A stretch of 64,000 nt of DNA from a bacterium (GTDB lineage Bacteria > Patescibacteriota > Minisyncoccia > JAHIHE01). The stretch is taken from contig JAUYBG010000006.1 in NCBI GenBank assembly GCA_030693205.1, forward strand, positions 4,015 through 68,014, given 5' to 3'. Within the stretch, counting starts at the first letter, position 1; each line of letters starts with the position of its first letter. Shown here one piece after another: positions 5,353 through 36,717 of this stretch. The notes beneath the pieces were generated by a model that was given only the letters and a program-made list of their open reading frames with translations, was not told where the DNA came from and ran no database searches. The translations under genes and the position numbers were made by a program.

Positions 5353-5427
5353 GATTTATGAAATATGATTTAAGATTTATGAATAATTATAATTTTCCCG
5401 TAAATCGTAAATCGTAAATCGTAAATC
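5353..5427. repeat. Heptamer-built palindromic intergenic element, copy 1. The left arm gatttatgaaatatgatttaagatttatgaat is followed by a spacer and then a gtaaatc x4 tandem.
   Basis: The left arm is near-identical to the 34-bp arms at 12337 and 36621. The right arm is the reverse-complement heptamers (taaatcN) and can pair with the left arm. Confidence 0.7.
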
Positions 5428-5575
5428 TGAGCAATTCTTTTGCGGTTTCAATGTATTTATCCGAATTAATCCCCCACCCATGTAATAAAATAATTGGAAT
5501 ATTTCCATCGCCAATTTGTTTATAATTTACATTCAAATCGTCAATTTTAATTTGTTTTTCCTGCATATTTAACAT
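5387..5575 (-). pseudogene. N-terminal remnant of an alpha/beta-hydrolase. Its reading frame runs into the heptamer repeat element.
   Basis: Only 62 aa, with the alpha/beta-hydrolase N-terminal motif IPIILLHGWG. The C-terminal residues (DLRFT DLRFT) are translated from the gtaaatc tandem, so the rest of the gene is missing. Confidence 0.55.
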
Positions 5576-5579
5576 ACAT

Positions 5580-5987
5580 CTACTTTTTTCTCAACTTCGA
5601 CGACTTATATATTTCCGGATGAAAAGGGTTTAATTTAATTATTTGCGTCTTGACAAGGTCAAACGCAGTCAATTTTTCCTTTAACTCTTCAAGCATTACT
5701 TCCTGATCATATCCTAAACAAATCATATCTGGTTTGTATTTCTGAATCACTTTATATTTATCATCCAAATCTCCCAAAACTACCAAATCTGCTAATTTGC
5801 TTTCGGATATTGTTTTTTGCCTGGCAAGCTCATTATTTTTTAGCAACCCGCTTTTTACCTTAAAAACATTCTTGTCTCTGGCAACAATAATAATTAAAAA
5901 GTCTCCGTATTCTTTGGCCTGCCTCAAAAAATCCCTGTGACCCTCGTGGAATATATCAAATGTCCCAAACACCATTACTTTTTTCAT
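5580..5987 (-). CDS. Cytidylyltransferase-like nucleotidyltransferase (TagD / RfaE domain-II family).
   Basis: FGTFDIFHEGH is an HxGH nucleotidyltransferase motif. The ~135-aa size matches glycerol-3-phosphate cytidylyltransferase-like proteins. It overlaps the lysS start by 4 nt. Confidence 0.6.
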   Translation of the reverse strand: MKKVMVFGTFDIFHEGHRDFLRQAKEYGDFLIIIVARDKNVFKVKSGLLKNNELARQKTISESKLADLVVLGDLDDKYKVIQKYKPDMICLGYDQEVMLEELKEKLTAFDLVKTQIIKLNPFHPEIYKSSKLRKK

Positions 5988-7447
5988 TTCTTTATCTTAA
6001 TTTCTTTCGGTCGCATCAATGGAAATATCTGACATTCTTTAATCGGCTTATCCATTAAAAAAGAAAATAATCGTTCACTGAAGCCATGTCCGCAAGTCGG
6101 CGGCATACCGTATTCCAGCGCTTCAACAAAATCATAATCTGCCATTTGCGCTTCTTTGTCGCCGGCATCTCGAAGTTTTTGTTGATTTTCAAATCTTTCT
6201 CTTTGATCGACTGGATCATTAAGTTCGCTATACCCTTGGCCGACTTCCGAGCCAGCAATAATAAAATGGAATCTCTCGGTAATATTTGGATTGCTCGACA
6301 ATACTTTTGCTAATGGAGAAGTAAATTTTGGTTCATTAATCAATATAGCGGGTCCCCCGATATTTTTACGGCAATATTTCCATAACGCATCCACCATACG
6401 GACGCGATTATTTGCTTCTGATTTAATTTTCAATTCGTATAATTTTTCCTGTATTTTTTTATCATTATCTTGCCAAATATCTATGCCTGTTTCTTTTTTG
6501 ACAGTTTCGGTATAATCAATAATTGGCCAATCGGCGCCCAAATCAACATCAAATCCTCTAATTTTGAATCCAAGGGTGCCAAAAGTTTTTTGCGCCACAA
6601 AACGATAGCAATCACGTAAAAATTTATACATATCTTCAAAGTTTCCGTATGCCCAATATGCTTCGCATTGAGTATAGTCTTGAAGATGTTCGGTAGATAC
6701 TCCCTCGTTTCTAAAAATCCTGCCTATTTCAAATGTTTTTTCAAAGCCAGCCACCATCAAACGTTTTTGCCATAATTCGCCGGCAGAGATGCGTAAATAG
6801 ACATCCGTATCAAAAGCGCTATGATGGGTTACAAAAGGATTAGCGTCAGCACCGCCGGTTGTATTTTCTAAAACAGGAGTTTCTACCTCTAAAAATCCGC
6901 GCTGCAAATGAAATTCTCGAACAGCATTCCAAAATACAGACTTTTTTTTAATCATCTCTTTAATTTCCGGATTAAATAAAATATCTAAATATCTTTTTCT
7001 CAGTCTTTCTTCCTCGTCCTGAAGCCCATGCCATTTTTCCGGCAAAGGCAAAAGTGATTTTGCCAAAATCCTGCAATTGGAAACCAAAAGGGTTTTTTCG
7101 CCCTTTTTTGTCGTAAAAATTTTTCCCGTAGCCTCAATAAAATCACCGACATCAAAATATCCGATCAAGTCCCATTGCGACGGAATAAGATCGTCTTTCT
7201 TGAAATAAATTTGAAAACTGCCCGAATCATCAGCGATATTGGCAAATATGGATCCTCCGTGACCCCGAATCGCCATTAACCGGCCGGCAAGGATGATCTC
7301 GGCTGATTCCTTTTCAAGTTTTTCCGCGTTTAAAATTGCTTCATTTGTTTTATGAGATCTCGCGGTTTTAGCCGGATATGGATCAATCCCGGCTTCAGCT
7401 ATTTTTTTCATTTTTTCCAAACGTACGCCGCGAATTTTATTAATCAC
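5984..7447 (-). CDS. lysS: Lysyl-tRNA synthetase, class II.
   Basis: 487 aa with an N-terminal anticodon-binding OB region and class II motifs (FRNEG..., GGADANPF...). There is overall LysRS colinearity. Confidence 0.85.
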   Translation of the reverse strand: MINKIRGVRLEKMKKIAEAGIDPYPAKTARSHKTNEAILNAEKLEKESAEIILAGRLMAIRGHGGSIFANIADDSGSFQIYFKKDDLIPSQWDLIGYFDVGDFIEATGKIFTTKKGEKTLLVSNCRILAKSLLPLPEKWHGLQDEEERLRKRYLDILFNPEIKEMIKKKSVFWNAVREFHLQRGFLEVETPVLENTTGGADANPFVTHHSAFDTDVYLRISAGELWQKRLMVAGFEKTFEIGRIFRNEGVSTEHLQDYTQCEAYWAYGNFEDMYKFLRDCYRFVAQKTFGTLGFKIRGFDVDLGADWPIIDYTETVKKETGIDIWQDNDKKIQEKLYELKIKSEANNRVRMVDALWKYCRKNIGGPAILINEPKFTSPLAKVLSSNPNITERFHFIIAGSEVGQGYSELNDPVDQRERFENQQKLRDAGDKEAQMADYDFVEALEYGMPPTCGHGFSERLFSFLMDKPIKECQIFPLMRPKEIKIKK

Positions 7448-7452
7448 AATAT

Positions 7453-7911
7453 TTAAATTATTTTTATTATTTTATACATATTCATTCCTTTGGGAGTTTT
7501 TACGGCTACTTTATCGCCGATCTTCTTGCCCAAAAAAGCGGCGCCAAGAGGAGATTCATTGGAGATCTTGCCGATAACCGGATTTGATTCATTGCGTCCC
7601 ACAATTGTGAAATTATGGCTTCCAGTGCCATTTTCCGCCTCTATGGTGGAACCGATCTGCACCACTCCGATTTTCTTTGGCTCCTCGATAATTGACGATT
7701 CTTTTAACATTTTTTCTATTTCTCCAACTCTTATTTCAGATTCCGCTTTTGCGTCTTTGGCTGCGGAATACTCGGCATTTTCACTCAAATCTCCAAGCTC
7801 TTTTGCCTCATGAATACGCCGGGCAATTTCTTGTCTTTTGGTGGTTTTTAAATAATCCAGCTCTTCTTTTAATTTCTTGAAGCCTTCTTCGGTTAAATAG
7901 GTTTTCGCCAT
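7453..7911 (-). CDS. greA: Transcription elongation factor GreA.
   Basis: 152 aa. The N-terminal coiled-coil LTEEGFKKLKEELDYLK...GDLSENAEY is characteristic of GreA. Confidence 0.85.
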   Translation of the reverse strand: MAKTYLTEEGFKKLKEELDYLKTTKRQEIARRIHEAKELGDLSENAEYSAAKDAKAESEIRVGEIEKMLKESSIIEEPKKIGVVQIGSTIEAENGTGSHNFTIVGRNESNPVIGKISNESPLGAAFLGKKIGDKVAVKTPKGMNMYKIIKII

Positions 7912-8026
7912 ATAAATATAATTTTATTGATTAAACTATGGTTTAAAAAAAATAGCGCTCCCGGAAGCAATACATGCCTATATATTAGCTTATTCGCGAA
8001 TTCATGTCAAACCTCATATTTTTATG

Positions 8027-10445: not shown

Positions 10446-10450
10446 TGAAA

Positions 10451-11245: not shown

Positions 11246-11277
11246 TTTACATTATCTGTTAAAACAATGGCTTAATT

Positions 11278-12330
11278 CTACGTTGGCACTTTTTCATCTT
11301 CAATTGAAACCAGAACCTCTCGCAAAGTATCGATGTTTTCAATAATAATACCGGTTCCCCTTACAACTGCGGTTAGGGGATCGTCGGCTATCCGCACCGG
11401 CATCTGAATTTCCTGATTAATTAATTTATCAATGCCTCTTAAAAGGCTTCCTCCTCCGACCAGAATAATACCTTGCCCCATGATATCCGCCACCAGCTCC
11501 GGCGGGGTTTCTTCGATCGTATTTTTAATATTTGAAACGATTATTCGCACGGAACGATTGATCGCTTTTCTTATCTGCTCATCGCTCACAATAACTTCTT
11601 TTGGCAATCCGGTAACCAGATCGCGCCCCCTGATCGGAACCTTGATAGTTTCCCCAAGCGGCCAAGCGGAACCGGATAAAATTTTAATTTCTTCCGCGGT
11701 TTTTTCACCAACCAAAAGATTAAATTCGTCCCGCGCATATTGAACGATATCATCATTCATTTCATCTCCCGCTACCCTTAAACTCCTGGAGGTCACGATG
11801 CCGCCCAAAGAAATGACCGCAATCTCGGTAGTTCCGCCCCCCATATCAACGATCATATTTCCAATCGCCTCTTGTACGGGAAGCTTAACTCCGATCGCCG
11901 AAGCCATCGGCTCTTCAACTAAAAAAACTTCTTTGGCGCCCGCCGAAAGCGCTGCGTCTCGCACCGCTTTTTTTTCAACCTGAGTTACTCCGCAAGGAAT
12001 TCCAATTACGACCGTGGGACGCGAAATAAAAGAAAAAAATTTTTCTGACGCCTTGTCGATAAAATATTTCAACATTTGCTCCGTAACTTCGAAATCGGAA
12101 ATCACGCCATCTTTAAGAGGCCTGATCGCGGTAATATATCCGGGAGTCCGCCCGACCATTATTTTTGCCTCACTCCCGACAGCCAATACTTGATTGGTTT
12201 TTTTATTTATCGCGACAACCGATGGTTCATTGATAACAATTCCTTTGCCGCGGACATAAACCAAAGTATTGGCCGTACCCAAATCTATGCCAATATCTCG
12301 CGAAAAAAATTTAAAAAAATCTTTGAACAT
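11278..12330 (-). CDS. mreB: Actin-like rod shape-determining protein MreB.
   Basis: 350 aa. GIDLGTANTLVYV and the phosphate-1/2 and adenosine motifs of the MreB/actin ATPase fold are present. Confidence 0.9.
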   Translation of the reverse strand: MFKDFFKFFSRDIGIDLGTANTLVYVRGKGIVINEPSVVAINKKTNQVLAVGSEAKIMVGRTPGYITAIRPLKDGVISDFEVTEQMLKYFIDKASEKFFSFISRPTVVIGIPCGVTQVEKKAVRDAALSAGAKEVFLVEEPMASAIGVKLPVQEAIGNMIVDMGGGTTEIAVISLGGIVTSRSLRVAGDEMNDDIVQYARDEFNLLVGEKTAEEIKILSGSAWPLGETIKVPIRGRDLVTGLPKEVIVSDEQIRKAINRSVRIIVSNIKNTIEETPPELVADIMGQGIILVGGGSLLRGIDKLINQEIQMPVRIADDPLTAVVRGTGIIIENIDTLREVLVSIEDEKVPT

Positions 12331-12336
12331 ATCAGA

Positions 12337-12429
12337 ATGATTTATGAATTATGATTTAAGATTTATGAATTTAACGCTGATTTATTCTTAAATCATAAAT
12401 CGTATATCGTATATCGTATATCTTAAATC
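12337..12429. repeat. Heptamer-built palindromic element, copy 2. It fills the whole mreB-proS intergenic region and starts 7 nt upstream of the mreB ATG.
   Basis: The 34-bp arm atgatttatgaattatgatttaagatttatgaat is identical to the copy at 36621. The right arm ttaaatcataaatcgtatat x3 is partly its reverse complement. Confidence 0.75.
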
Positions 12430-12441
12430 TTTGCCTAAATA

Positions 12442-13683
12442 TCATTTATCTATCAATTTGACTGCTTCTTCCAAACTCATTAATTTCACTTCTTCTCTGC
12501 CTCTTTCTTTTACTTCAATCTTACCCTTATTTCTCTCGCTTACCACCAATCTAAGCGGAATTCCAATGAGATCGCTGTCTTTAAATTTCATTCCCGCCGA
12601 TAAATTTCGGTCATCAAATAATACCTCAATATCGGCTTTTTGTAAAGACGCGTAAATATTTTCCGCTTCTTTCTTTGCGTTTTTATCATCCGGGTTGATC
12701 AGGATAAGATGCACGCGGAAAGGCGCAATGCTAGAGGGCCAGATAATGCCATTTTTGTCATTGCATACTTCAACCACCGTTCCCATCAAGCGATCAAGTC
12801 CAATGCCATAGCAACCCATAATAACAGTCTTTTCTTTTCCATCCTGATCTTTAAAACGCAAATTGAACGGCGCGCTATATTTCGTGTTCAGCTTAAAAAT
12901 ATTTCCCACCTCGATCGCTTTTTTAATTTCAAATTCCTCGCTTTGGCATTCCGGACAAACCGGGTTTATGTCAGCCAATATTTCTTTGTTGATCGACAAG
13001 TGGCATTTTTTGCAGATATAAATAACATCTTCCCCGGCTTCCGTAATTGTCTGAAATTCATGCGAGTATTTCGAAAAAGTTCCGCCGCTTGCCAAGGTCA
13101 AATAAGTTTTTCCCTTAATTCCGACTCTCTCAAAAATTTTCCAATATGTATCTTTTATTTTTTCATAAAATTCATTCAAATCTTTTTCATCCGCGTGAAA
13201 TGAATACATATCCTTCATCAAAAACTGCCGGCCCCGCAAAATTCCGCTCTTTGCCCGTTTTTCATTGCGAAACTTGGCCTGAATCTGATAAACCGACACA
13301 GGCAGATCTTTGTAAGAAGAAATGGACTTTCCAAGCAAGGGCACAACCACTTCTTCATGAGTGGCTCCGAGAGCGTATTCTTTGCTGTCATCGCCCTTAA
13401 GCTTAAACAAAACATCCAGCTCGTCCCAGCGGCCGGTTATCTGCCAATTCGCTTTTGGCTGAAGCGCCGGCATCAAGATCTCCTGCCCGCCTACCGCGTT
13501 CATTTCCTCGCGAATTATATTTCCAATCTTATTTATAACTCGAAGCCCCAGAGGCAAGTGCATATATATGCCGGCGGCCAGCTTGTCAATAAAACCCGCT
13601 CTCGTCAAAAGCCGCGCGTTCAGGCTTTTTTCCTCGGCTGAAATATTTTTAGTTGTTTTGGTAAATAATTGTGATTGGCGCAT
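12442..13683 (-). CDS. proS: Prolyl-tRNA synthetase, bacterial type, short form lacking the INS editing domain and carrying a Zn-ribbon insert.
   Basis: The N-terminus aligns with bacterial ProRS (QLFTKT...RAGFI.KLAAGIY..LPLGLRV..K...IIREEM). The class II core and the anticodon-binding C-terminus are present. It is 413 aa, against about 570 aa for typical bacterial ProRS. Confidence 0.8.
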   Translation of the reverse strand: MRQSQLFTKTTKNISAEEKSLNARLLTRAGFIDKLAAGIYMHLPLGLRVINKIGNIIREEMNAVGGQEILMPALQPKANWQITGRWDELDVLFKLKGDDSKEYALGATHEEVVVPLLGKSISSYKDLPVSVYQIQAKFRNEKRAKSGILRGRQFLMKDMYSFHADEKDLNEFYEKIKDTYWKIFERVGIKGKTYLTLASGGTFSKYSHEFQTITEAGEDVIYICKKCHLSINKEILADINPVCPECQSEEFEIKKAIEVGNIFKLNTKYSAPFNLRFKDQDGKEKTVIMGCYGIGLDRLMGTVVEVCNDKNGIIWPSSIAPFRVHLILINPDDKNAKKEAENIYASLQKADIEVLFDDRNLSAGMKFKDSDLIGIPLRLVVSERNKGKIEVKERGREEVKLMSLEEAVKLIDK

Positions 13684-13705
13684 AAAATAATGCTAATTTA
13701 AAAAA

Positions 13706-14824: not shown

Positions 14825-14853
14825 AAAATAAAATTAAATATTTATCGTTTTTT

Positions 14854-15408: not shown

Positions 15409-15425
15409 TTTATTATTATAAAAAA

Positions 15426-16541
15426 TTAAAACATCTTTTTTTTCGCCGGAGGAGGAACCGTGCCGGCATAAATAACTTTTGAATTATTGGGATCGATCGT
15501 CAGCGCGGTGATAACTCTTATTGTAGGCAAATTGCGCACCAGCCAATTTGACTCCGCTCCGTTGTTCGTAAAATAAACCTGCGAATCGATCGTGTAATAA
15601 ATGCTTTTTGAATCTTTCTGGCTGACAACCAAAGAATTCATCGGTAAGATCGCTGACGGAGTAATGATATTAACTGTCGACCATTTTATGCCTCCGTCGC
15701 TGGATTTCAACATACCGTTCAAAAAACCAATATAGATTATGTTTGGATCTGCCGGATCCACCGCGATCACATTTATAGCGTTGTTATAAGCCGGTATCTT
15801 GGTTAAATTATCCTTGAGAGACTCCCAGTCGTTGCCTTTATTAACAGACTTGAACAAGCCCTCCGACACACTGGTGGCGTAAAGTATCCTGGTGTCTTTC
15901 GGACTAATTACGAAATTATTGATTATTGCCGTCAAGCGATTTAGCACTGTCCAGCTTCGCCCGTAATTGGCGCTCTGAAAAATTTGCCCCTTGGTGGTAG
16001 TGATATATACGATGCTGGTATCATAAGAATCGATTTCGATCCTATTCACTAATTCTCCGGCGGTTAACGTCACGTATACTTCCTGCCAAGTCAATCCTTC
16101 ATCCTCGCTTTTCATAATCCTTCCTTTGCCATAGTCGCTTACTCCGGCCAAATACATATTTTTTATATTCTTATGATCAATGGCAACATAGTAAACCGCG
16201 GCTTGAAGAGAAAGGCCTGTTCCATTATACGAATCCCAGCTCTCGCCGGCATCTTTTGTCTGATACAAACCATTGGCCGCACTGCCGGCATAAATAATAT
16301 TGCTATCATTCGGATTAATAGCGAAGCTTAAAAAATTTATTTCAGACAGGTCCGTTTTTACCTTGGCGTCTGCCGGAAGAATCAATTGCAATTTCCTTTC
16401 CCAGGTCAGACCCCCGTCGATAGATTTAAAAACCCCCGCATCTTTTGGCACGGCGCTGGACGAACACCCCGGAAATGCGGCTCCAAAAAATAAAAACGCG
16501 GCAATGGCTAAAAATATAAATTGCTTTTTATTTTTTATCAT
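15426..16541 (-). CDS. BNR/Asp-box repeat (Ycf48-like beta-propeller) lipoprotein.
   Basis: A lipobox (AAFPGC) follows the signal peptide. There are six S-x-D-x-G-x-(T/S)-W Asp-box repeats (SIDGGLTWE, TKDAGESWD, SEDEGLTWQ, SANYGRSWT, SVNKGNDWE, SSDGGIKWS). Confidence 0.7.
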   Translation of the reverse strand: MIKNKKQFIFLAIAAFLFFGAAFPGCSSSAVPKDAGVFKSIDGGLTWERKLQLILPADAKVKTDLSEINFLSFAINPNDSNIIYAGSAANGLYQTKDAGESWDSYNGTGLSLQAAVYYVAIDHKNIKNMYLAGVSDYGKGRIMKSEDEGLTWQEVYVTLTAGELVNRIEIDSYDTSIVYITTTKGQIFQSANYGRSWTVLNRLTAIINNFVISPKDTRILYATSVSEGLFKSVNKGNDWESLKDNLTKIPAYNNAINVIAVDPADPNIIYIGFLNGMLKSSDGGIKWSTVNIITPSAILPMNSLVVSQKDSKSIYYTIDSQVYFTNNGAESNWLVRNLPTIRVITALTIDPNNSKVIYAGTVPPPAKKKMF

Positions 16542-17530
16542 ATTTCTAAAGCTAAAATTTCAAGCGCCAGGCGCTTGTTAATATTAGAGCTATTAATTAA
16601 ATTTAATATTATAACTAAATTATTAATAAAATCCACCGTTTTTTTTAGTCCGCCTTCGGTTTGCATCGCGCCGTTCGCAACGCCTCCCGATAAATATTTC
16701 TCTAAAATTTTTTTCCTCAAGCATAACAGCCAAAACCTCAAAACATCGCTGATATTTTCCCCTTTCTCTTCATTCTTGGATAAATTTTCCAGAAAAATTA
16801 TTTTTTCCGATAAGTTCGATGCAAAAAAATTCCAAAAAATTTCTTCTTTCTTGTAATGATCCTCGATCTTTTGCTCGTTTTTTAAAAACTCTATCGCCAG
16901 TCCGGGTTTGCCGGAAGAAATTGCGCTGATAGTTTTTGCTTTTTGCACCGGCGCTTTGCGGCTAACAAGAAAATTTTCAATTGTTTCGTCTTTCAAAGGC
17001 CAAAAACGGATTACCTGAGTCCGGGAAATCAAGGTTTTTAGCAAAAATTTGCTGTCGTCCGCGACAAGAATAATAATAGAATTGCCTTTTGGCTCCTCAA
17101 GCGTTTTCAAAAAAGCATTTACCGCTTCAACTGTAAACTTATGCGCTTCGTTGATGATCGCGATCTTGTATTTTGAATTATAGGGAAAAAGGCTTAAATG
17201 ATGCTCGAGTACCCTGATCTCATCGATCGAAATTGATTTTTTTTCTTCCCCGTCCTTGTCTAATATCTTATTTTTTGACGAATTTATGAACAAAACATCC
17301 GGATCGGTCTCATTTTCAATTGTCAGGCATCTGGGACATACGCCGCAAGCATTCCCAAATGTGCCGTTTTGGCAAGACAGATTTTTTGCAAATTCTTTAG
17401 CCAGCAAAAATTTTCCTAAATTTTCCACGCCAATGAATAAATAGCTATGCGCGATCTTTTTATTTCTAAGCGCCGCTGACAAAAGTTTTTTGGCGTTCTC
17501 GTGCCCGGCAACATTTAAAAAACTGTCCAT
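16538..17530 (-). CDS. holB: DNA polymerase III delta-prime subunit (clamp loader, AAA+).
   Basis: HSYLF.G motif, a Walker-A-like GKF motif, and the Zn module C..C...C..C (CQNGTFGNACGVCPRC) typical of delta-prime/tau. Confidence 0.75.
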   Translation of the reverse strand: MDSFLNVAGHENAKKLLSAALRNKKIAHSYLFIGVENLGKFLLAKEFAKNLSCQNGTFGNACGVCPRCLTIENETDPDVLFINSSKNKILDKDGEEKKSISIDEIRVLEHHLSLFPYNSKYKIAIINEAHKFTVEAVNAFLKTLEEPKGNSIIILVADDSKFLLKTLISRTQVIRFWPLKDETIENFLVSRKAPVQKAKTISAISSGKPGLAIEFLKNEQKIEDHYKKEEIFWNFFASNLSEKIIFLENLSKNEEKGENISDVLRFWLLCLRKKILEKYLSGGVANGAMQTEGGLKKTVDFINNLVIILNLINSSNINKRLALEILALEI

Positions 17531-19635: not shown

Positions 19636-19703
19636 TTGATTAAATCTTTGGAAAATTTTGCGGCGGGATTTTTAATATGAATTGATTTTTAGGATTTTTT
19701 GAA
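19636..19703. repeat. 68-bp direct repeat, copy A (its mate is at 20531-20598, about 88% identical). It lies upstream of the BRO-N start.
   Basis: ttgattaaatctttggaaaattttgcggcgggatttttaatatgaattgatttttaggattttttgaat versus the copy at 20531. Confidence 0.7.
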
Positions 19704-19729
19704 TTTCGAGAACAGTTCTCGGCAGGATT

Positions 19730-20530: not shown

Positions 20531-20598
20531 TTGATTAGATCTTTGGAAAATTTTGGGTCCGGATTTTCAATATGAATTGATTTTAAAGATTTTTTAAA
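20531..20598. repeat. 68-bp direct repeat, copy B (mate of 19636-19703). It lies upstream of the RhuM/Doc gene.
   Basis: See copy A. Confidence 0.7.
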
Positions 20599-20660
20599 TC
20601 TTGTAAGCAATTCTCAAAAATATTAAAAAGCGCTTAGTGCCTCATTTCCACTTTATATTA

Positions 20661-24233: not shown

Positions 24234-24344
24234 AATATTACTTCTTTTTCCTTCTTAAGCTTTATTAATCGCAATCTTACCCCAATTTGGGCTTAAAATT
24301 AATGAAAAAACGGCTGAAGAGCAAAGTTACGGATTTTCTCGTAT

Positions 24345-24529
24345 TTTTCCACCAGCGCTTTAATTTTTTCTTTGGCTTGTTGTTGCGTAATTGTTTTCCT
24401 TAAACTAAACTTCTACATTATCTTACCCCAAAACCTCCATAAAATCAAATAAAAAAATCCGGCGAATTTAATATTTCACCGGCTTGTCTTTTGGCAAATA
24501 ATTCATTTCTTGCCTTTTTTCAAAATCTT
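24345..24529. repeat. ~185-bp direct repeat, copy 1 (about 98% identical to 27896-28082). It carries a TTGATT-N17-TAAGAT promoter pointing at the helicase gene, and it also encodes the C-terminus of the ATPase fragment.
   Basis: Alignment of 24345-24529 with 27896-28082 shows only about three mismatches. Confidence 0.85.
24410..24438 (-). promoter_or_regulatory. Sigma70-like promoter (TTGATT-17-TAAGAT) inside repeat copy 1, about 180 nt upstream of the helicase-nuclease ATG.
   Basis: Minus-strand read: TTGATTttatggaggttttggggTAAGAT. The same module sits upstream of the rhuM ATG (29090-29118), and with TATAAT upstream of murC. Confidence 0.5.
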
Positions 24530-26751: not shown

Positions 26752-26752
26752 T

Positions 26753-27883: not shown

Positions 27884-27895
27884 AGCAACAATGCC

Positions 27896-28082
27896 CTTTT
27901 TCCACCAGCGCTTTAATTTTTTCTTTGGCTTGTTCTTGCATAATTGTTTTCCTTAAACTAAACTTCTACATTATCTTACCCCAAAACCTCCATAAAATCA
28001 AATAAAAAAAATCCGGCGAATTTAATATTTCACCGGCTTGTCTTTTGGCAAATAATTCATTTCTTGCCTTTTTTCAAAATCT
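27896..28082. repeat. ~185-bp direct repeat, copy 2. It overlaps the last 8 codons and 3' flank of rhuM, and contains a promoter module plus the start of a short ORF (MQEQAKEKIKALVEK...).
   Basis: See copy 1. Confidence 0.85.
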
Positions 28083-29061: not shown

Positions 29062-29089
29062 AAAATTTTCTTAAACTAAACTCTATCTA

Positions 29090-29118
29090 ATCTTACCCCA
29101 AAACTCGCTTAAAATCAA
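29090..29118 (-). promoter_or_regulatory. Sigma70-like promoter TTGATT-17-TAAGAT, about 29 nt upstream of the rhuM ATG.
   Basis: Minus-strand read: TTGATTttaagcgagttttggggTAAGATtagatagagtttagtttaagaaaattttATG. Confidence 0.55.
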
Positions 29119-29519
29119 ACGAAATTAACATCGCCATCTTCCTGCAATTCCGCCAAAACTCCTTCCGGTATCGGAACCGCCTCTCGCAGTTTGGAAATTC
29201 CCGGATAACGCCAAGCGGTAATTACGACTCGCCTTTCATTGCTAACTCCATCTTGAGTTATTTTTTTATCCTGATACATCACCCAAATCTCCTGCGGATT
29301 TTTCTTGGAACCGGATTTTTTCATCACGGCAACAGTATCCGGCGCGATACCCTGTTCTTCGCGATCATGGCGCGACAAAACACTCTTTACTTTTGCGGCG
29401 GACAAGCCATAAAACATCATTTTTCTCGCAATATGACGCGTCCAAGCCAGATAGCGAGTGTTTTTAGGCATTTTAAACCCCCACACTTTTGTGTTTGCCG
29501 CGTTTATTTTATTCGCCAT
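29115..29519 (-). CDS. Hypothetical 134-aa protein. Its last 8 codons form the island's right direct repeat.
   Basis: ORF with no recognised domain. The C-terminus ...IPEGVLAELQEDG is encoded by the repeat caattccgccaaaactccttccggt. Confidence 0.4.
   Translation of the reverse strand: MANKINAANTKVWGFKMPKNTRYLAWTRHIARKMMFYGLSAAKVKSVLSRHDREEQGIAPDTVAVMKKSGSKKNPQEIWVMYQDKKITQDGVSNERRVVITAWRYPGISKLREAVPIPEGVLAELQEDGDVNFV
29145..29174. repeat. Right copy of the island-bounding direct repeat. It is also the 3' end of the ORF at 29115-29519.
   Basis: See the left copy. Confidence 0.8.
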
Positions 29520-29590
29520 AATATTTCAAACTTAATCCCTTATTTTCTCCGACACTTTGTACGATAAGTGTGGGGGTAAATTGCATGAAA

Positions 29591-30688
29591 TTATTCTATC
29601 AATATTTTTAACGTCTCCCTCGCGCATTTTTCCCAAGAAAATCTTTTGGTATTTTCGTAGCCGGCTTGAATAAGATCCTGACGCAATGCTTCGTCGCTTA
29701 GCACTTTTTCCAGAGCCATCGTAATTTCCCTAGAATTTTTCGGATCGACAAAAACCGCGCCCGCGCCCGCAACTTCCGGCAAGCAAGAAGTATTAGATGT
29801 GATAACCGGAACTCCAGCCGCTTGCGCTTCCAGCACCGGCAAACCAAATCCTTCATAAAACGACGGGAAAAGAAAAACCGAGGAATTTTTCAACAAATCA
29901 TTCTTTTCGCTTTCCGTCACATATCCTTTCAAAACAATATCCTTTTTAAATGCTGAGGCGTTTATTGCGCTGGCGATTTTTTCGAAACCAAAACCCGTCC
30001 CGCCGACCAAAATCAGTTTATTTGAAAATTGCAAATTTTTTTGCCTAAATTTATTATACGCTTCGATAATTCCCAAAATATTTTTCTTCATTTCGATCCG
30101 CCCGATATATACAATAGAACCCCTTTTATTATTTTCTGGATCTTGACTCATAATTTTTGGCTCCTGCCCTATCCCATGATAAACTACACTAATTTTTTGT
30201 ACATTTCCGCCATATAATTTCATTAGATCTTTCTTAGTATTCTCTGAAACCGCAATAATTCTCGCGGCAGTTTTGAGTGCGTATTTCGTTGACCATCGCA
30301 AATACAGACGATGCCAAAAAGGATAAAGCTCCGGAAAATATTCATATTCCAGCCCGTGAAGCGCGACAACTGATCTTTTCGGATGGATCAGGGGCAAAAT
30401 ATGCACCGGGATAAACAAAACATCAATCTTGGAATTCAACATCTCCCAGGCCAGTCTTATTTGCGTCCAGCCAAAAGGAAAAGACAAAAATTTAAGCTCA
30501 AAATTTTCCGGCAACGTTTGCAGTTCTTTTAAACGCCCGGACCTAAGCCGCGGATTCAGATATAAAATAAAGCGATGAGCCCGAGATTCCGGGATCACCG
30601 CCAAATGTTTAATAAGTTGAAAAACATATTCTTCCACTCCGGTGGGATTTTCTTTTAAAGCCGCGGAAGTATTAATGCCGATGATCAT
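29591..30688 (-). CDS. Glycosyltransferase family 4 (GT-B).
   Basis: EGFGLPVLEAQAAGVPVITS (E-x7-E) motif. 365 aa. Confidence 0.75.
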   Translation of the reverse strand: MIIGINTSAALKENPTGVEEYVFQLIKHLAVIPESRAHRFILYLNPRLRSGRLKELQTLPENFELKFLSFPFGWTQIRLAWEMLNSKIDVLFIPVHILPLIHPKRSVVALHGLEYEYFPELYPFWHRLYLRWSTKYALKTAARIIAVSENTKKDLMKLYGGNVQKISVVYHGIGQEPKIMSQDPENNKRGSIVYIGRIEMKKNILGIIEAYNKFRQKNLQFSNKLILVGGTGFGFEKIASAINASAFKKDIVLKGYVTESEKNDLLKNSSVFLFPSFYEGFGLPVLEAQAAGVPVITSNTSCLPEVAGAGAVFVDPKNSREITMALEKVLSDEALRQDLIQAGYENTKRFSWEKCARETLKILIE

Positions 30689-30691
30689 AAT

Positions 30692-31693
30692 TTACGATTT
30701 TATACTCCGTTTATAGGCATCCAGATTATCAAGCGCCACCCCTGTTCCTTTTGCCACGCAAAGCAACGGCTCTTCCGCGACACAGCAAGATACGCCCGTA
30801 ACGGTAGAAATTAAAATATCCAAGTTTTTCAACAATGCCCCGCCTCCCGACAATACCATGCCTTTGTCTATTATATCCGCCGCCAGTTCCGGAGGAGTAT
30901 CGGAAAGAACCAGTTTTATAACCTTGATGATCTCTCTTAATTCGTCGGAAATTGCTTCGGTTACTTCATTGGAATTAATTGCAATTGTTTTCGGAAGACC
31001 GCTGATCAGATCTCTTCCCTTAACTTCAAACTCGATGGGTTCTTTAACAGGAATGGCACTGCCGATCGTTATTTTAATTTCTTCGGCCGTTTGTTCGCCA
31101 ATCGCCAAATTATGTTTTTTCTTGACATAATCAGCAATAGACTGATCCAGTTTGTCTCCGCCGATTCTTACTGACGATGACGAAACAATGCCTCCCAGCG
31201 ATATCACGGCTACCTGGCTTGTGCCCCCGCCAATATCAATGATCATATTGCCGGAAGGAGTATTAATCGGTATTCCCGCGCCAATGGCCGCCAAAATCGG
31301 CTGTTTGACGATATAAGCGGCTTTTGCGCCCGCATTCATCGCCGCATCGATAACCGCGCGCCTTTCGGTGGAAGTAATTCCTGCCGGCACTCCCACCATT
31401 ACTTCCGGACGAAAAAACTGAATACGGCCGCAAGTCTTATTGATAAAATATCGGAGCATAGCTTCAATAATCCGATAATCAGCTATAACGCCATCTTTCA
31501 TGGGACGCGAAGCGATTATGGTTTCTGGGGTCTTTCCCAACATTTCCTTTGCTTTGCTTCCAACCGCCAAGATCTTATTATCATCTAAAGAAACCGCCAC
31601 TACTGTCGGTTCGTTTATCACAATGCCTTTTCTGGGAACAAAAACCAAAGTATTGGCCGTACCCAGATCAATGCCAATTTTTTTAATAAACAT
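30692..31693 (-). CDS. mreB: Second MreB-like actin-family ATPase (paralogue). The start was chosen at the internal Met that aligns with MreB N-termini; the ORF-track start at 31816 adds 41 poorly conserved residues.
   Basis: MFIKKIGIDLGTANTLVFV... followed by the full set of MreB motifs. It is a clear paralogue of the 11278-12330 gene but not identical. Confidence 0.8.
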   Translation of the reverse strand: MFIKKIGIDLGTANTLVFVPRKGIVINEPTVVAVSLDDNKILAVGSKAKEMLGKTPETIIASRPMKDGVIADYRIIEAMLRYFINKTCGRIQFFRPEVMVGVPAGITSTERRAVIDAAMNAGAKAAYIVKQPILAAIGAGIPINTPSGNMIIDIGGGTSQVAVISLGGIVSSSSVRIGGDKLDQSIADYVKKKHNLAIGEQTAEEIKITIGSAIPVKEPIEFEVKGRDLISGLPKTIAINSNEVTEAISDELREIIKVIKLVLSDTPPELAADIIDKGMVLSGGGALLKNLDILISTVTGVSCCVAEEPLLCVAKGTGVALDNLDAYKRSIKS

Positions 31694-31825
31694 AAATTTA
31701 CTTACAAAAACTTTCTTACTTTCTTTTAAAATCATAGCAGTAATCAAAAAGCAAGTCAACCTTAAAAGACTTTCAAAATAACTGAAATATGTTATAATGG
31801 CATAAACTGAACTCATTTAAAGTTT

Positions 31826-31902
31826 TGTCATGCTGAACTTGTTTCAGCATCTAAGGTAAGCTAAAAATTAGTAATAGATTCCGAAACAAGTTCGGGATGA
31901 CA
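31826..31902. repeat. Composite inverted repeat. The 28-bp arms tgtcatgctgaacttgtttcagcatcta and tagattccgaaacaagttcgggatgaca flank a 21-bp centre. Each arm carries an internal hairpin with an AAACAAGTT core.
   Basis: The arms are reverse complements at 23 of 28 positions. An equivalent arm pair occurs at 58071-58178. It sits in the divergent mreB2 / membrane-protein intergenic region. Confidence 0.7.
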
Positions 31903-32024
31903 CAAATGGCATATTTTGGCTTAAAATAATATTTATTGGGAAAAACTTAAAATAACTTAACTCATACTAACTAATATTGCCTGCCAGTATTTAAATAACC
32001 GCCAGTATGCTAAAATAATTTTCT

Positions 32025-33434: not shown

Positions 33435-33470
33435 AACCCCAGTCCAAGAAAACAAATAAACTTCAAACAT

Positions 33471-33500
33471 AAAAACACCCGCCATTTCGGCGAGTGTTTT
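33471..33500. terminator. Bidirectional hairpin terminator between the convergent 32025 gene and rpsI.
   Basis: aaaaacacccgcc-atttc-ggcgagtgtttt: a 9-bp stem with one mismatch, flanked by A- and T-tracts. Confidence 0.55.
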
Positions 33501-33522
33501 CGAACATACTGTAAAATAATCC

Positions 33523-34023
33523 TTAGCGTTTCTGCCACTGTGGTGCGCGACGGGCTTTCTTGAGACCCGGCTTCTTTCGCTCTTTCTTCCTGGCGTCCCT
33601 GGTCAAGTACCCGATTCGTTTTAGAGGTTTCTTAAAAATAGGATTCGCCTCAATAAGCGCCCGGGAAATGCCAAGCCGAATCGCTCCGGCCGAGGAAGGC
33701 ACTCCGCCGCCGCTGACAATACAACTGATCTTAAACCTGTTCTGCAAATGCAATAAATTGACCGGCGAGACAACAACTTCCTGCAATTTTTTTAAAGGAA
33801 AATATTTTTTGTATTCCATGCCGTTTATGGTCATCTCGAGCGTTGTCTCTTCGCTTTTTCTTTGCGGATACAGCCTCACCTGCGCGGTAGAAGTTTTTCT
33901 TCGGCCTATGCCTAAAAAATACTTTTCGCTCTTTTTGGCAATATCCGGCACTTCTGCTTTTTCCATCAAAGGTTTTTCTTTAATAACTTCTTTTTTTATA
34001 TGTTTTTTAATAGCTGTTTTCAT
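33523..34023 (-). CDS. rpsI: 30S ribosomal protein S9 (with an N-terminal extension of about 35 aa).
   Basis: YFLGIGRRKTSTAQVRL... and the C-terminal KKARRAPQWQKR match the S9 signature. Confidence 0.85.
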   Translation of the reverse strand: MKTAIKKHIKKEVIKEKPLMEKAEVPDIAKKSEKYFLGIGRRKTSTAQVRLYPQRKSEETTLEMTINGMEYKKYFPLKKLQEVVVSPVNLLHLQNRFKISCIVSGGGVPSSAGAIRLGISRALIEANPIFKKPLKRIGYLTRDARKKERKKPGLKKARRAPQWQKR

Positions 34024-34051
34024 TACGAGTAATATTAATATTTATATGAAT

Positions 34052-34519
34052 TTACTTTTTAATTTTATCGCCATAGGGATGCTTATCGCCTTTAAACATC
34101 TTCAGTCTTAATATTTTCTTATCCCGAAGCTTATTTTTTGCGATCATGCCCCACAACGCCGCTTTTAAAACCAATCCGGAATCTTTTTTAAATAAAGTTT
34201 TATATTTGGTTTCGCTTAATCCGCCCGGAAATCCTGAAAAATGAAAATAGTTCTTCTGATCAGCCTTAGCGCCGCTTACTTTCAAGCCATCAGTATTGAT
34301 TACAACCGCGTAATCACCCGCGTCAATATGCGGAGTAAATGTAGGCTTATGCTTACCCATTAATACTTTTGCTATTTTTGTCGCGAACCTTCCGAGATAT
34401 TGATCTTTTGCGTCAAATAAATACCATTCTCTCGCAATGCCGTCTTGCTCGTCTTGCTTTTTTTGTCCGGGTTTTTGCTCATTATCGCCAGCTAGCCCTG
34501 TAGAATTTTTTTTAACCAT
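34052..34519 (-). CDS. rplM: 50S ribosomal protein L13 (with an N-terminal extension).
   Basis: WYLFDAKDQYLGRFATKIAKVLMGKHKPTFTPHIDAGDYAVVIN matches L13. Confidence 0.85.
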   Translation of the reverse strand: MVKKNSTGLAGDNEQKPGQKKQDEQDGIAREWYLFDAKDQYLGRFATKIAKVLMGKHKPTFTPHIDAGDYAVVINTDGLKVSGAKADQKNYFHFSGFPGGLSETKYKTLFKKDSGLVLKAALWGMIAKNKLRDKKILRLKMFKGDKHPYGDKIKK

Positions 34520-34563
34520 ATTTATTTATTATATATAAAAGGGAAATATTATTCCAATAAAAC

Positions 34564-34914
34564 TTATTTCAGCAATTCAACGACAACTAATTCCGCTTTG
34601 TCGTGCTGGCGTCTGCCGATCTTAGTCAAACGAGTATAGCCGCCGTTCCTTGAAGCGTAACGAGGCGCTATTTCGGAGATCAGTTTTTTTACGAATAAAG
34701 CGGGGATAAATCTTAAAAGATATCTTTCGGCGGCCAGATCTTTTTTCTTAGCGCGCGTTATCAATCTTTCGACATGAGGAGCAAGCGCTCTTCCTTTGGC
34801 TTTTGTCGTAATAATTTTTTCAGCATCAATCAATGAGCCTGTTAAACTTTTTAACAAAGCTTTTCTTTGAGATGCGGATCGATCCAGTTTTTTTACCTTA
34901 TTTAAATGTCTCAT
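34564..34914 (-). CDS. rplQ: 50S ribosomal protein L17.
   Basis: MRHLNKVKKLDRSASQRKALL... and GGYTRLTKIGRR match L17. Confidence 0.85.
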   Translation of the reverse strand: MRHLNKVKKLDRSASQRKALLKSLTGSLIDAEKIITTKAKGRALAPHVERLITRAKKKDLAAERYLLRFIPALFVKKLISEIAPRYASRNGGYTRLTKIGRRQHDKAELVVVELLK

Positions 34915-34926
34915 AGCTCGTTTTTA

Positions 34927-35913
34927 TTATTGTTTTAAGACTAAACCCAATTTACCCAGTTCTTTTTTAATTTCTTTCACGCTAACCGCGCCCATTTTTG
35001 GCATTTCCAGAAGACTCGCTTCGGATTTCTTCGAAATAGCGCCGGCTGTTTTTAATTTATTTTCTTTCAGCGCCGCTATTGTTCTGGCGGAAAAATTCAT
35101 ACTCTCAACTGATTTCAATAAAACTGATTCGTCTTTTTGCGGCTCTTTTGCGACTTCTTTAACTTTTTTCTTTTCTTTTTCGGGTACTACCGCGTCAGAA
35201 ACAACGTCTTCTTTCTTGGCAATCTTGCCGCTGATCAACCTTATCGCCTCAAATTGCTTAATTAAAATTTCCGCGGACTGACTGAGAGCGTCTTCCGGAT
35301 CAATGCTTCCGTCCGTCTCAATTTCAAATATTATCTTATTATAATCGGTTCTCTGTCCGACACGGGCGTTTTCCACTTCATAACCAACTTTTCGAACGGG
35401 AGAAAAAATCGCGTCAATAGCAATCACACCGGTTTCTTTCTTGCCTTTTGCTTGCTGTTCGATGGTTAAATATCCCAACCCTTTTTCAACCGTTAATTCA
35501 ATGTTTAATTCTGCATTTTTATTGGTAAGAGTGGCGATCGGAGCGTTTTTATTTATAACTTCGATCTGGCTATTGGGCTTAATATCGGAAGCAACTACAC
35601 TGCGCTCCCCTTTGGCGGAAATAGTGACTTTTACCGGTTCATCGCCAAATAATTTAAACCTCAATTGCTTTAAATTCAAAATGATTTCTACTATATCTTC
35701 CTTGACGTGAGGCAATGTCGAAAATTCATGCGAAACATTTCTGATCTTAGCCGATGTCACAGCCGCGCCTTGCAAGCTGGAAAGCATAACTCTCCGCAAA
35801 GCATTCGCCAGGGTAACTCCATATCCGGGATAAATATCGTCTATTTCAAAAATTCCCAAGTTTCCCTCTTTTTTAATTAATTTTGGCGGTTTTGGTAATG
35901 TAATAATATTCAT
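34927..35913 (-). CDS. rpoA: DNA-directed RNA polymerase alpha subunit.
   Basis: N-terminal dimerisation domain (GYG.TLANALRRVMLSS) and a C-terminal alpha-CTD. It follows rpsD. Confidence 0.85.
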   Translation of the reverse strand: MNIITLPKPPKLIKKEGNLGIFEIDDIYPGYGVTLANALRRVMLSSLQGAAVTSAKIRNVSHEFSTLPHVKEDIVEIILNLKQLRFKLFGDEPVKVTISAKGERSVVASDIKPNSQIEVINKNAPIATLTNKNAELNIELTVEKGLGYLTIEQQAKGKKETGVIAIDAIFSPVRKVGYEVENARVGQRTDYNKIIFEIETDGSIDPEDALSQSAEILIKQFEAIRLISGKIAKKEDVVSDAVVPEKEKKKVKEVAKEPQKDESVLLKSVESMNFSARTIAALKENKLKTAGAISKKSEASLLEMPKMGAVSVKEIKKELGKLGLVLKQ

Positions 35914-35983
35914 TTTATTTTTTCCCCTCGCACTTTTCCGTTTAAAACGGAAAAGATCGGAGCGGTTAATAAATTAATAATAA

Positions 35984-36613
35984 TTATCGAGAATAAAACT
36001 CGATCACCGGCTTGATATCTGCAGAGAGCCCTGCTTCCAATAATGACGGCGCTGCCATTATCTTAACTTCCATTTTTTCAAGATTAAACGCCATCCAAGA
36101 AGGAGCCTTCTTCTGTTTCAAAGCCTCGGTAATATTTTTAAAATAATTCTTTTTCTTGCTTTTTTCCTGTATAGAAATTACATCTCCGATCTTTACCCGA
36201 TATGAAGGAATATTCACTTTTTTGCCGTTAACGTTAAAATGGTCGTGATTGACAAGCAAACGCGCTTCGCTTCTGGAAGAAGCCAAGCCTGAGCGATAAA
36301 CAATATTATCCAAACGAAACTCAAGCATATTAAGCAAGATTACCGCCGTATCGCCTTTTATGCCCACGGCTTCATTGAGATACTTGACAAATTGTCTTTC
36401 GAGCACTCCGTAAGTCTTTCGAACTTTTTGTTTTTCCCTTAGCTGAGAGCCGTATTCGGTCAACCTAACCCTGGCATTCTTTCCGAGATGTCCTGGCGGA
36501 TAAGCGCGCCTGGTTAAAGCGCATTTTACCGTATTGCAACGCTCGCCTTTTAGAAAAAGCTTATCGCCGACTCTCCGACATACCTTACATTTTGCTGAAT
36601 TATATACTGCCAT
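35984..36613 (-). CDS. rpsD: 30S ribosomal protein S4 (zinc-ribbon type).
   Basis: CKVCRRVGDKLFLKGERC...C Zn-ribbon and an S4 RNA-binding domain. Confidence 0.85.
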   Translation of the reverse strand: MAVYNSAKCKVCRRVGDKLFLKGERCNTVKCALTRRAYPPGHLGKNARVRLTEYGSQLREKQKVRKTYGVLERQFVKYLNEAVGIKGDTAVILLNMLEFRLDNIVYRSGLASSRSEARLLVNHDHFNVNGKKVNIPSYRVKIGDVISIQEKSKKKNYFKNITEALKQKKAPSWMAFNLEKMEVKIMAAPSLLEAGLSADIKPVIEFYSR

Positions 36614-36620
36614 ATTTGCT

Positions 36621-36717
36621 ATGATTTATGAATTATGATTTAAGATTTATGAATATAATTTTCTCCGTTTCTTCCAACATTTTCTTCGTAAATCATAAAT
36701 CGTAAATCTTAAATCAG
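36621..36717. repeat. Heptamer-built palindromic element, copy 3. It begins 8 nt upstream of the rpsD ATG and sits inside the ribosomal alpha operon between rpsK and rpsD.
   Basis: The 34-bp arm is identical to copy 2. The right arm cgtaaatcataaatcgtaaatcttaaatcag is its near reverse complement. Confidence 0.75.

Follow-up and report, generated by a model that had tools for sequence, protein, structure and literature searches.

GATTTAN heptamer palindromes beside gatC, mreB and rpsD in a Patescibacteriota contig belong to a widespread class of intergenic repeats

What are the three A/T-rich repeats that sit beside gatC, mreB and rpsD in a 64,000-nt stretch (the window) of contig JAUYBG010000006.1 (positions 4,015 to 68,014, forward strand; GenBank assembly GCA_030693205.1), from a bacterium of the Patescibacteriota (Minisyncoccia)? 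A first-pass annotation of this DNA described them as copies of one palindromic element built of 7-nt units, and proposed either a selfish repeat resembling transposable elements of the miniature inverted-repeat type (MITEs) or repetitive extragenic palindromic (REP) sequences, or a cis-regulatory RNA structure acting as a shared translational operator. The three loci are members of a class of palindromes with GATTTAN units, which is an A/T-rich counterpart of the short tandemly repeated repetitive (STRR) hairpins of cyanobacteria and of the GGGAATC repeats of Xanthomonas. The reading we prefer, to which we give about an even chance of being right, is that each is a spacer of repeats that slippage and gene conversion have reshaped, and that it is transcribed as an A/U-rich stem-loop between cistrons and is near-neutral in this genome.

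The element is recognized by a 34-nt arm, ATGATTTATGAATTATGATTTAAGATTTATGAAT, which occurs exactly at 12337-12370 and at 36621-36654, as the first-pass annotation had it, where the chance expectation for the window is zero matches. The further copy that it placed at 5353 with 30 of 33 matches is real, but lies at 5351-5384 and has two mismatches to the 34-mer (32/34). On the plus strand the left half reads in the register GATTTAT GAATTAT GATTTAA GATTTAT GAAT. The right halves consist of GATTTAN-kind units on the minus strand, inverted relative to the 34-mer arm, and Tandem Repeats Finder reported period 7 at all six arms. A variable spacer followed by reverse-complement heptamers, as described, is present in all three copies; the loop spacers measure 15, 17 and 33 nt (copies 1, 2 and 3) and are mutually unrelated. 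The copies, all of which sit between called genes, have the hallmarks of STRR-type repeats, namely tandem 7-nt units arranged head-to-tail with at least two per array, dispersal over several non-coding spacers, a fixed inverted pairing able to form a stem-loop, and a number and sequence of units that differ at one locus from one related genome to another. They are atypical members of their class in that only the start-proximal 34-nt arm is common to them, while the partner arms are unrelated.

Copy 1 starts 9 nt past the stop codon of gatC (5051-5341, plus strand; this and the following genes were named by Pfam). Its conserved arm (5351-5384) is followed by a spacer not common to the other copies (5385-5399) and by an inverted arm that is a perfect tandem, (GTAAATC)x4 (5400-5427, plus strand as for all arms given here). 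An open reading frame (ORF) at 5387-5575 on the minus strand runs into this repeat, crosses (GATTTAC)4 and stops inside the loop; its C-terminal translation is RFTIYDLRFTGKL, with the repeat peptide ...RFTIYDLRFT. The first 38 residues match the N-terminus of an intact 281-aa Abhydrolase_1 protein (25/38 identical, 66%, E 3e-21) encoded in a relative (L137; L numbers denote the loci examined), whose gene is syntenic, being placed after the same cytidylyltransferase gene. Because the N-terminus matches this intact syntenic gene, the truncation of an alpha/beta-hydrolase gene at copy 1 is real; the loss exceeds the two-thirds first claimed, with about 40 of 281 codons remaining and ~85% of the gene gone.

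Copy 2 lies between a class II aminoacyl-tRNA synthetase gene (12442-13683) and mreB (11278-12330), both on the minus strand. Its conserved arm (12337-12370) ends 6 nt upstream of the mreB ATG (12330-12328), the spacer occupies 12371-12387, and the inverted arm, TTAAATC ATAAATC (GTATATC)x3 TTAAATC (12388-12429), lies 12 nt from the synthetase stop codon and pairs with the 34-mer over a 13-bp helix only. Copy 3 lies between rpsK (36779-37237) and rpsD (35984-36613), also on the minus strand; its conserved arm (36621-36654) ends 7 nt upstream of the rpsD ATG (36613-36611), and after a spacer (36655-36687) the inverted arm, GTAAATC ATAAATC GTAAATC TTAAATC (36688-36715), is separated from the rpsK stop codon by 63 nt of AT-rich sequence (36716-36778). 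The start-proximal placement claimed for these two copies thus stood, at 6 and 7 nt rather than the 7-8 nt reported, as did their location in transcribed intercistronic spacers, co-transcription being graded very probable. Short-read (Logan) contigs of the same organism start inside the arm at both mreB and rpsD, which is the usual signature of a dispersed repeat, and the view of the element as a genuine multi-copy, palindrome-forming repeat is upheld. A two-unit proto-array (sense AAAATCG TAAATT; 30689-30702, plus strand) spans the stop codon of an mreB paralogue and abuts the ATG of a glycosyltransferase gene (29591-30688); it shows that the heptamer unit resembles a native TAA-stop/ATG junction.

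The GATTTAN palindromes are not private to this genome. The pattern GATTTAHGATTTAH-N(10-40)-DTAAATCDTAAATC was scanned over 185,579 species genomes and matched at least 120 loci, against a chance expectation, by our own arithmetic, of 0.02 in uniform DNA or ~2 if all DNA were 70% A+T. Among the matches listed, with approximate counts taken from record labels, Bacteroidota account for ~55 loci (including complete Parabacteroides chromosomes, Bacteroides intestinalis and Flavobacterium), Verrucomicrobiota for ~16, Patescibacteria for ~13, Chloroflexota for ~12, Planctomycetota for ~7, Desulfobacterota/"Deltaproteobacteria" for ~4, Nitrospirota for ~3 and Acidobacteriota for ~2, with a few in Proteobacteria (Alpha or unclassified) and singletons in other groups. 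No locus among these matches was labelled Bacillota or Gammaproteobacteria, and the Actinomycetota label appeared on one short contig of a metagenome-assembled genome only. A BLAST search of plasmids showed that a Planktothrix agardhii plasmid also carries a GTAAATC array. Here drmA is followed by GATTTGG GATTTAC GATTGAC..., a 67-nt spacer and ~27 GTAAATC units, and then, after the two nucleotides "cc", by the ATG of a DUF1998 gene in a DISARM operon. On the same plasmid (p1; L141, 1410-1604) the "hypothetical protein" WP_254032729.1 corresponds to the opposite-strand translation of (GTAAATC)n and is almost certainly a spurious gene call.

In a viral collection of 2.9 million contigs, four contained the forward pattern. 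Two of these (L128, IMGVR_UViG_3300032163_001985; L129, IMGVR_UViG_3300036766_000602) represent one phage, which carries 7-8 copies; six element spacers were counted in an 8.7-kb stretch of L128, and seven elements in a 14-kb stretch of L129. They all lie between structural genes (major head protein, protease, adaptor), where almost every spacer is occupied. The phage palindromes are near-perfect (−35 to −82 kcal/mol), continue past the heptamers into common non-repeat sequence (gtcttgaacc...ggttcagac), and are each followed by a GGAGG site and an ATG. GATTTAN palindromes are, in sum, a widespread intergenic class.

The anatomy of the family was analyzed in 125 intergenic elements from the 120 loci, with genes called by a simple longest-ORF caller. 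Elements were found in 86 tandem, 15 convergent and 12 divergent spacers, compared to 553, 117 and 117 for all spacers in the same loci; since this mix matches the background, there is no terminator-like or promoter-like bias. Intrinsic terminators, i.e., a short G+C-rich stem followed by a U run, were searched for in the elements and no such site was found. The distance to the upstream stop codon peaks at −2, where the stop (T|GA or T|AA) has two bases in common with the first unit, and stops fall within −2 to +4 nt of the element in 58 of 123 cases. At the other end, starts overlap the last unit (...ATAA|ATG) in 19 of 121 cases and fall within −3 to +10 nt in 58 of 121. Without the element, the median length of the spacer that is left is 18 nt, while ordinary tandem spacers have 56 nt (p=0.003), and in 61 of 83 cases the stop codon is the nearer of the two (61:22; p=2e-5). 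Across the family, therefore, the arrays occupy the non-coding gap from the upstream stop to the next start and often overlap both codons.

Polarity is fixed as (GATTTAN)n-loop-(NTAAATC)n. Ten further unascertained pairs in the same loci were all forward and none reverse, and the reverse-polarity pattern had no match in all 141 loci examined or in the 2.9 million viral contigs. Outer units keep the GATTT core, and it is their last two positions that change (GATTTAT, GATTTAC, GATTTAA, GATTGTA, GATTTTG and others), and unit number changes at orthologous loci, with L102 and L104, and L072 and L111, differing by whole units. The idea that the 5' arm is kept free of stop codons was dropped, as it holds only for GATTTAC units.

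The first-pass annotation held that copies 2 and 3 had replaced the Shine-Dalgarno (SD) sequences of mreB and rpsD. When leaders of 45 nt were listed for all called genes of the window, they proved A/T-rich, with a GGAGG-like sequence in almost none of them; judged by these leaders, the organism is one that initiates translation without an SD site. The elements therefore displace no ribosome-binding site. In the family loci, an SD-like tetramer precedes 6 of 97 element-adjacent starts, compared to 194 of 811 other genes (p=1e-5). The latter background, 24%, is near chance, and the family hosts are therefore SD-poor.

The long imperfect hairpin attributed to the window copies is predicted, but it is weak. 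Gene-sense hairpins of the three copies have predicted energies of −16.4, −16.1 and −20.7 kcal/mol (z −1.9 to −4.3), which places them at the 94th-98th percentile of family stability, i.e., at its weakest end. The folding energy of family elements is −0.365 kcal/mol/nt, against −0.273 for chimeras that combine the left half of one locus with the right half of another (p=3e-17), which shows that in most loci one arm is matched to its partner. The window copies are below the chimera mean and fold no better than the chimeras. This chimera test replaced a measure of in-register complementarity of the outer units, which gave a weak signal because the arms differ in length. In the window, the antisense (plus) strand folds better because T-G becomes a U-G pair there. 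We did not accept this G-U advantage as evidence for an antisense RNA, as the stability of sense and antisense RNA showed no asymmetry over the 86 tandem loci (37 vs. 39).

Relatives within the Patescibacteria, picked by their S4 and MreB homologues, differ at the sites of copies 2 and 3. In L131 (S4 identity 93%) the rpsK-rpsD spacer is 32 nt long and reads cat TAAATCA TAATTCT TAAATCT aatttaat before the ATG. That of L133 (85%) has 241 nt and a heptamer palindrome of other units (AATCCCA.../GATTTGT...), that of L132 (80%) has 213 nt and an octamer (GYTAAAAT) palindrome ending ...aaaatgaattt before the ATG, and that of L134 (67%) has 31 nt and no element. In an alignment (A2), the window spacer corresponds to that of L131 plus 133 nt directly after the stop codon; these include the AT-rich stretch at 36716-36778 and are missing from L134 as well. 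The last, start-proximal ~23 nt of the 34-mer of copy 3 are orthologous to the rpsD leader of L131. As part of the arm is already present in that leader, the site does not show the pattern of a simple transposon insertion. In the spacer between the synthetase gene and mreB, L135, whose DNA is 87.6% identical along 10.6 kb, has a 90-nt palindrome that is built of GTATTAA/AATACNN units and pairs well (−25.5 kcal/mol), and L136 has TTAGAAT-type arrays; L138 has (TGACTAA)x7 before mreC. Close relatives thus have, at these sites, either no element or a palindrome whose units, of 7 or 8 nt, are different ones. This indicates fast turnover, and both spacers are therefore hot spots at which short-unit palindromes arise, homogenize and get replaced.

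Octamer palindromes (GYTAAAAT / ATTTTARC) were also observed between rpoA and rplQ (L131 and L132) and between rplQ and rplM (L131), at L131 3105-3221 and 3573-3693 and at L132 724-936 and 2690-2856. They end 6-8 nt before the ATG (...gaattt ATG; ...gaatttgt ATG at rplQ-rplM). The window has a two-unit trace of the octamer, gttaaaatgttaaaat, in the spacer at 57794-58167.

Intergenic heptamer repeats as such are a known kind. The classic STRR units CCCCAGT, TTGGTCA and CAACAGT differ from GATTTAN, and to our knowledge STRR have been described only in filamentous cyanobacteria. As summarized in one paper, 7-bp STRR hairpins lie, for example, between the cyanobacterial genes hupS and hupL, with transcript stability or translational coupling proposed as their role (PMC2670836). 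GATTTAN 7-bp repeats likewise fold into hairpins that separate neighbouring cistrons of an operon, and one array of the family lies on the Planktothrix plasmid. The (GGGAATC)n repeats of Xanthomonas comprise 186 sets with 70 convergent inverted pairs, are ~90% intergenic, and have mean distances of 28 nt to the upstream ORF and 160 nt to the downstream ORF; they differ from species to species and are transcribed, and no function was found (Rehm et al. 2015, PMC4692102). Nostoc has heptamer repeats of the form GGGGA(T/C)T (PMC4692102). The GATTTAN elements share with these Xanthomonas and Nostoc repeats the tandem 7-nt units, the intergenic location, the fixed convergent pairs forming stem-loops and the position nearer the upstream ORF, and, as in Xanthomonas, their length and sequence vary between close species. 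Unlike the Xanthomonas repeats, the GATTTAN unit is A/T-rich and cannot form a G-quadruplex, its arrays extend to both the stop and the start codon, its elements are not depleted between divergent genes, and its range covers about ten phyla and a phage instead of one genus.

A third comparison concerns the TAACTGA repeats, which end ~1 nt before start codons without a ribosome-binding site, including those of S4, fusA and further genes of translation, and have a patchy, unexplained distribution in marine Beggiatoaceae, Cyanobacteria and some Bacteroidetes (MacGregor 2015, PMC4679880). Almost all of them are direct, with one inverted case (PMC4679880). The 34-nt arm of the window, together with its counterparts in two metagenomic loci described below, ends 6 nt (mreB), 7 nt (rpsD), 5 nt (fusA, L125) and 12 nt (a GH101-family gene, L123) before start codons that have no SD. 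The similarity, an array in one orientation near a start without a ribosome-binding site, S4 and fusA included, is a resemblance of layout and not membership: the GATTTAN unit differs, its arrays are inverted, and TAACTGA repeats do not hug stop codons. A literature text search for GATTTAC/GTAAATC arrays returned no relevant paper. For the STRR, GGGAATC and TAACTGA repeats there is no proven function, and the GATTTAN unit seems to be undescribed in the literature searched, as do its breadth, the fixed polarity and the packing from codon to codon.

Under the preferred reading, replication slippage of the 7-nt unit would grow and shrink the arrays, and intrastrand template switching at the hairpin would create an inverted arm and keep the arms complementary. 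Two exact copies and one near-exact copy in 64 kb, with unrelated partners, indicate copying of the arm alone within the genome; ectopic gene conversion may recently have copied the 34-nt arm between heptamer leaders, overwriting older arms so that the hairpins weakened. A rearrangement at one array could have deleted most of the hydrolase gene. The element, very probably co-transcribed with its operon, would place the base of an A/U-rich stem-loop beside the downstream start. It would be tolerated because the hosts use no SD site and an A/T-rich arm is an acceptable leader. Any effect on the operon mRNA would be 3' protection or processing, or coupling of initiation to termination, rather than that of a dedicated operator. 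In the window genome the effect is probably close to neutral. An RNA-level role (coupling, stability, processing), as proposed for the cyanobacterial analogues (PMC2670836), is possible.

Several points weigh against this reading. Neutral slippage alone leaves the same unit and polarity in about ten phyla unexplained, and it leaves the exact halt of the arrays at stop and start codons unexplained, although purifying selection on the coding sequences could set these limits. Fixed polarity, recurrence of the unit across phyla and the phage case are least well explained by a passive model. In the phage, the sense strand folds better in five of seven elements, which are too few to weigh. A first count of lone arrays was contaminated by outer parts of palindromes; the strict recount left five tandem cases, all with NTAAATC on the sense strand (5/5). 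Finally, a metagenome scan with the 33-mer of the arm found it exactly in four contigs, at other loci or in other organisms. Two of these (L125 and L126) are one fusA locus from two samples, in which the arm lacks an inverted partner and occurs by itself, 5 nt before the ATG of fusA and downstream of rpsG and an inserted toxin-antitoxin-like pair; this lone arm looks like a functional leader or a mobile module. In PVC-like L123, three direct copies of the arm and further inverted arrays fill a 330-nt spacer before the GH101-family gene, whose homologues come from Verrucomicrobia and Planctomycetota.

Parabacteroides, another Patescibacteria genome and an IncI plasmid of E. coli carry arrays that are 2-3 mismatches away from the 33-mer. 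Identity of the 33-mer across phyla was consequently rejected as proof of horizontal transfer; the alphabet of units is small, and identical strings can therefore recur independently. On the E. coli plasmid (pSTEC1012_2, CP061271.1; L140, 2503-2535) the array reads (ATGATTT)4 ATGAATT ATG, two mismatches from the 33-mer, and lies directly after a phage-integrase-family gene of this IncI-type conjugative plasmid.

The alternative that survives best, which we nonetheless consider unlikely, is a functional cis-acting RNA in which the stem-loop joins the upstream stop to the downstream start. In one version, the terminating ribosome would melt the stem base and expose the A/U-rich NUAAAUC leader, resulting in SD-independent translational coupling; in the other, the long stem would be an RNase III site or an exonuclease-blocking site that sets relative cistron levels. 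The arrays that abut or overlap stop and start codons, the fixed polarity, the arms matched within loci, and the SD-poor hosts, whose element-adjacent starts almost never have an SD, all speak for such a role, as do the sense orientation of the lone arrays and the solitary arm before fusA. The phage adds a hairpin after the major head gene and others between further structural genes, with the sense strand more stable in the five of seven noted above. Phage T7 early mRNA has intercistronic RNase III hairpins, and T4-type phages have promoter-stem-loop (PeSL) cassettes. The phage elements resemble both as repeated stem-loops between consecutive genes, but T7 and PeSL stem-loops are not built from tandem heptamers. 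Equivalent roles have been proposed for STRR hairpins and TAACTGA repeats. Against a cis-acting RNA stand the missing sense/antisense folding asymmetry over the tandem loci, the background frequency of convergent and divergent spacers, and the close relatives that have no element or unrelated ones at the same genes. Within the window, the hairpins are weak, the antisense strand folds better, and the stem of copy 3 begins 63 nt past the stop codon. A search of the window with Rfam 15, which includes ribosomal-protein leaders, gave no match at the gathering score, and matches within the elements were at chance level (E>0.5). A translational operator shared by the three copies and serving highly expressed genes, as first suggested, does not fit a family without arrangement bias or sense-strand folding gain, the differing sites of relatives, or the weak hairpins of the window.

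We regard as somewhat less probable still a non-autonomous MITE or foldback-type mobile element, whose terminal inverted repeats would be heptamer arrays bound by a transposase, mobilized in trans and spread partly on phages. Terminal inverted repeats would give the fixed polarity; copies are multiple, with identical 33/34-mers at unrelated loci and on other contigs; copy 1 coincides with a truncated gene; genomes differ in whether a given site holds an element; one unit occurs in many phyla; and the phage, which carries the elements densely, could be a vector. Eukaryotic foldback transposons have long inverted arms of short tandem subrepeats, and the GATTTAN elements share such arms with them and, with bacterial MITEs, the form of small non-coding intergenic elements. 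For a classical MITE, however, the whole element should be conserved, and the window copies share a single arm while spacers and partner arms differ. No flanking direct repeat that could be a target-site duplication was seen at the window copies, and no autonomous partner was found in the window. The filled rpsK-rpsD site does not equal the empty site plus an element, as 133 extra nucleotides stand beside a heptamer leader that pre-exists in L131. The arm is also found alone, and the near-33-mer arrays of Parabacteroides and the E. coli plasmid show how identity can come from the small unit alphabet. Pfam found no domain of a transposase, a REP-associated tyrosine transposase (RAYT; Y1_Tnp) or an integrase in the window ORFs (64 kb of the genome).

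The REP-like identity that had been proposed is not supported. REP sequences are 20-40-nt, G+C-rich imperfect palindromes with a GTAG/CGTC head and a co-occurring RAYT gene. GATTTAN elements resemble REP sequences, bacterial interspersed mosaic elements (BIMEs) and REP doublets forming hairpins (REPINs) as short, multi-copy intergenic palindromes, often in operons, and REPIN inverted doublets also form long hairpins. Their arms, unlike REP sequences, are A/T-rich tandem heptamers; a single arm is not self-complementary, has neither the head nor a G+C-rich stem, and is accompanied by no Y1 transposase in the window.

A portable promoter appears very unlikely. Here the gene-strand 34-mer would carry −10-like hexamers and give short-leader or leaderless transcripts of mreB, rpsD and fusA. 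The sense 34-mer does have CATAAT 17 nt and CATAAA 10 nt before the ATG, and the lone arm stands 5 nt before the fusA ATG after the inserted toxin-antitoxin-like pair. At several other window genes, e.g., 38307-39965 and 16538-17530, TATAAT precedes the ATG by 5-6 nt, and this suggests that the Patescibacteria lineage concerned has leaderless mRNAs. A consensus scan found no sigma-70-type promoter in the elements, although that consensus may not be the one of the host lineage. A −35 element is missing, copy 1 points at the end of gatC rather than at a gene start, and the family as a whole hugs stop codons. Least probable of all is a DNA-level binding array, a duplex or cruciform to which a conserved dimeric protein factor of the nucleoid, of replication or of repair would bind, which would suit the fixed half-site polarity, the GATTT core conserved across phyla, the lack of RNA strand asymmetry and the independence from gene arrangement, but for which no candidate protein is known, the unit type changes completely between close relatives, and a period of 7 bp does not keep phase with the helix of DNA.

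Other repeats were observed in the window. The gene mnmA (44331-45548, minus strand), encoding a tRNA 2-thiouridylase, contains a perfect in-frame (TTTGGGA)x4.4 at 45010-45040, which is (AATCCCA)n on the coding strand and encodes EIPNPKSQIPNK; this GATTTGG-type heptamer array in a conserved enzyme is a possible slippage or frameshift site. Another palindrome, TGTCATGCTGAACTTGTTTCAGCATCTA / TAGATTCCGAAACAAGTTCGGGATGACA (31823-31905 and 58151-58178), forms a strong hairpin in the divergent spacer by the second mreB-like gene, has its further copy near 58.1 kb, and looks like a separate REP-like family. The two MreB/Mbl paralogues themselves (30692-31816 and 11278-12330) have an 84-nt stretch that is 81% identical (31595-31678 and 12211-12294). 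A repeat family of the form TCTACATTATCTTACCCCAAAAC...AAAATCAAA has four copies (24412-24454, 27965-28007, 29082-29124 and 50972-51014). A 114-nt duplicate (24344-24457 vs. 27897-28010; 98% identity), part of this family, flanks a low-GC island at ~19.3-29.1 kb (GC 0.28 at 24-28 kb). The island contains defence-type genes, namely those of an R.Pab1-like restriction enzyme, of an N6/N4 DNA methylase and of a helicase of 1190 aa that carries REase_MTES_1575/DUF559 nuclease domains, together with two RhuM-family genes, and it interrupts a conserved housekeeping region, because L135 joins the flanks differently. An 85-nt direct repeat (19636-19720 and 20531-20615; 84% identical) occupies spacers upstream of small ORFs by a truncated RhuM-like gene.

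Heptamer repeats are over-represented in bacterial intergenic DNA. What distinguishes the present case is one A/T-rich unit that occurs in a single polarity, wedged between stop and start codons, in many phyla including the tractable gut Bacteroidales, and in a phage. For the annotation of streamlined uncultured genomes, such repeats matter in that short-read assemblies fragment at them, spurious ORFs (…IYDLRFT…) arise from them, and genes can be cut short by them. GATTTAN palindromes also offer a concrete system for the effect of hairpins on translational coupling and mRNA fate where no SD sequence is used. There is a small chance, in our estimate, that the polarity-fixed palindrome is a conserved functional device of SD-poor bacteria and phages, a stop-to-start stem-loop with an (NUAAAUC)n leader. 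If so, the ribosome or another universal factor would read this leader, for termination-coupled SD-independent initiation or for controlled mRNA processing, and this would explain why one unit in one orientation recurs in about ten phyla.

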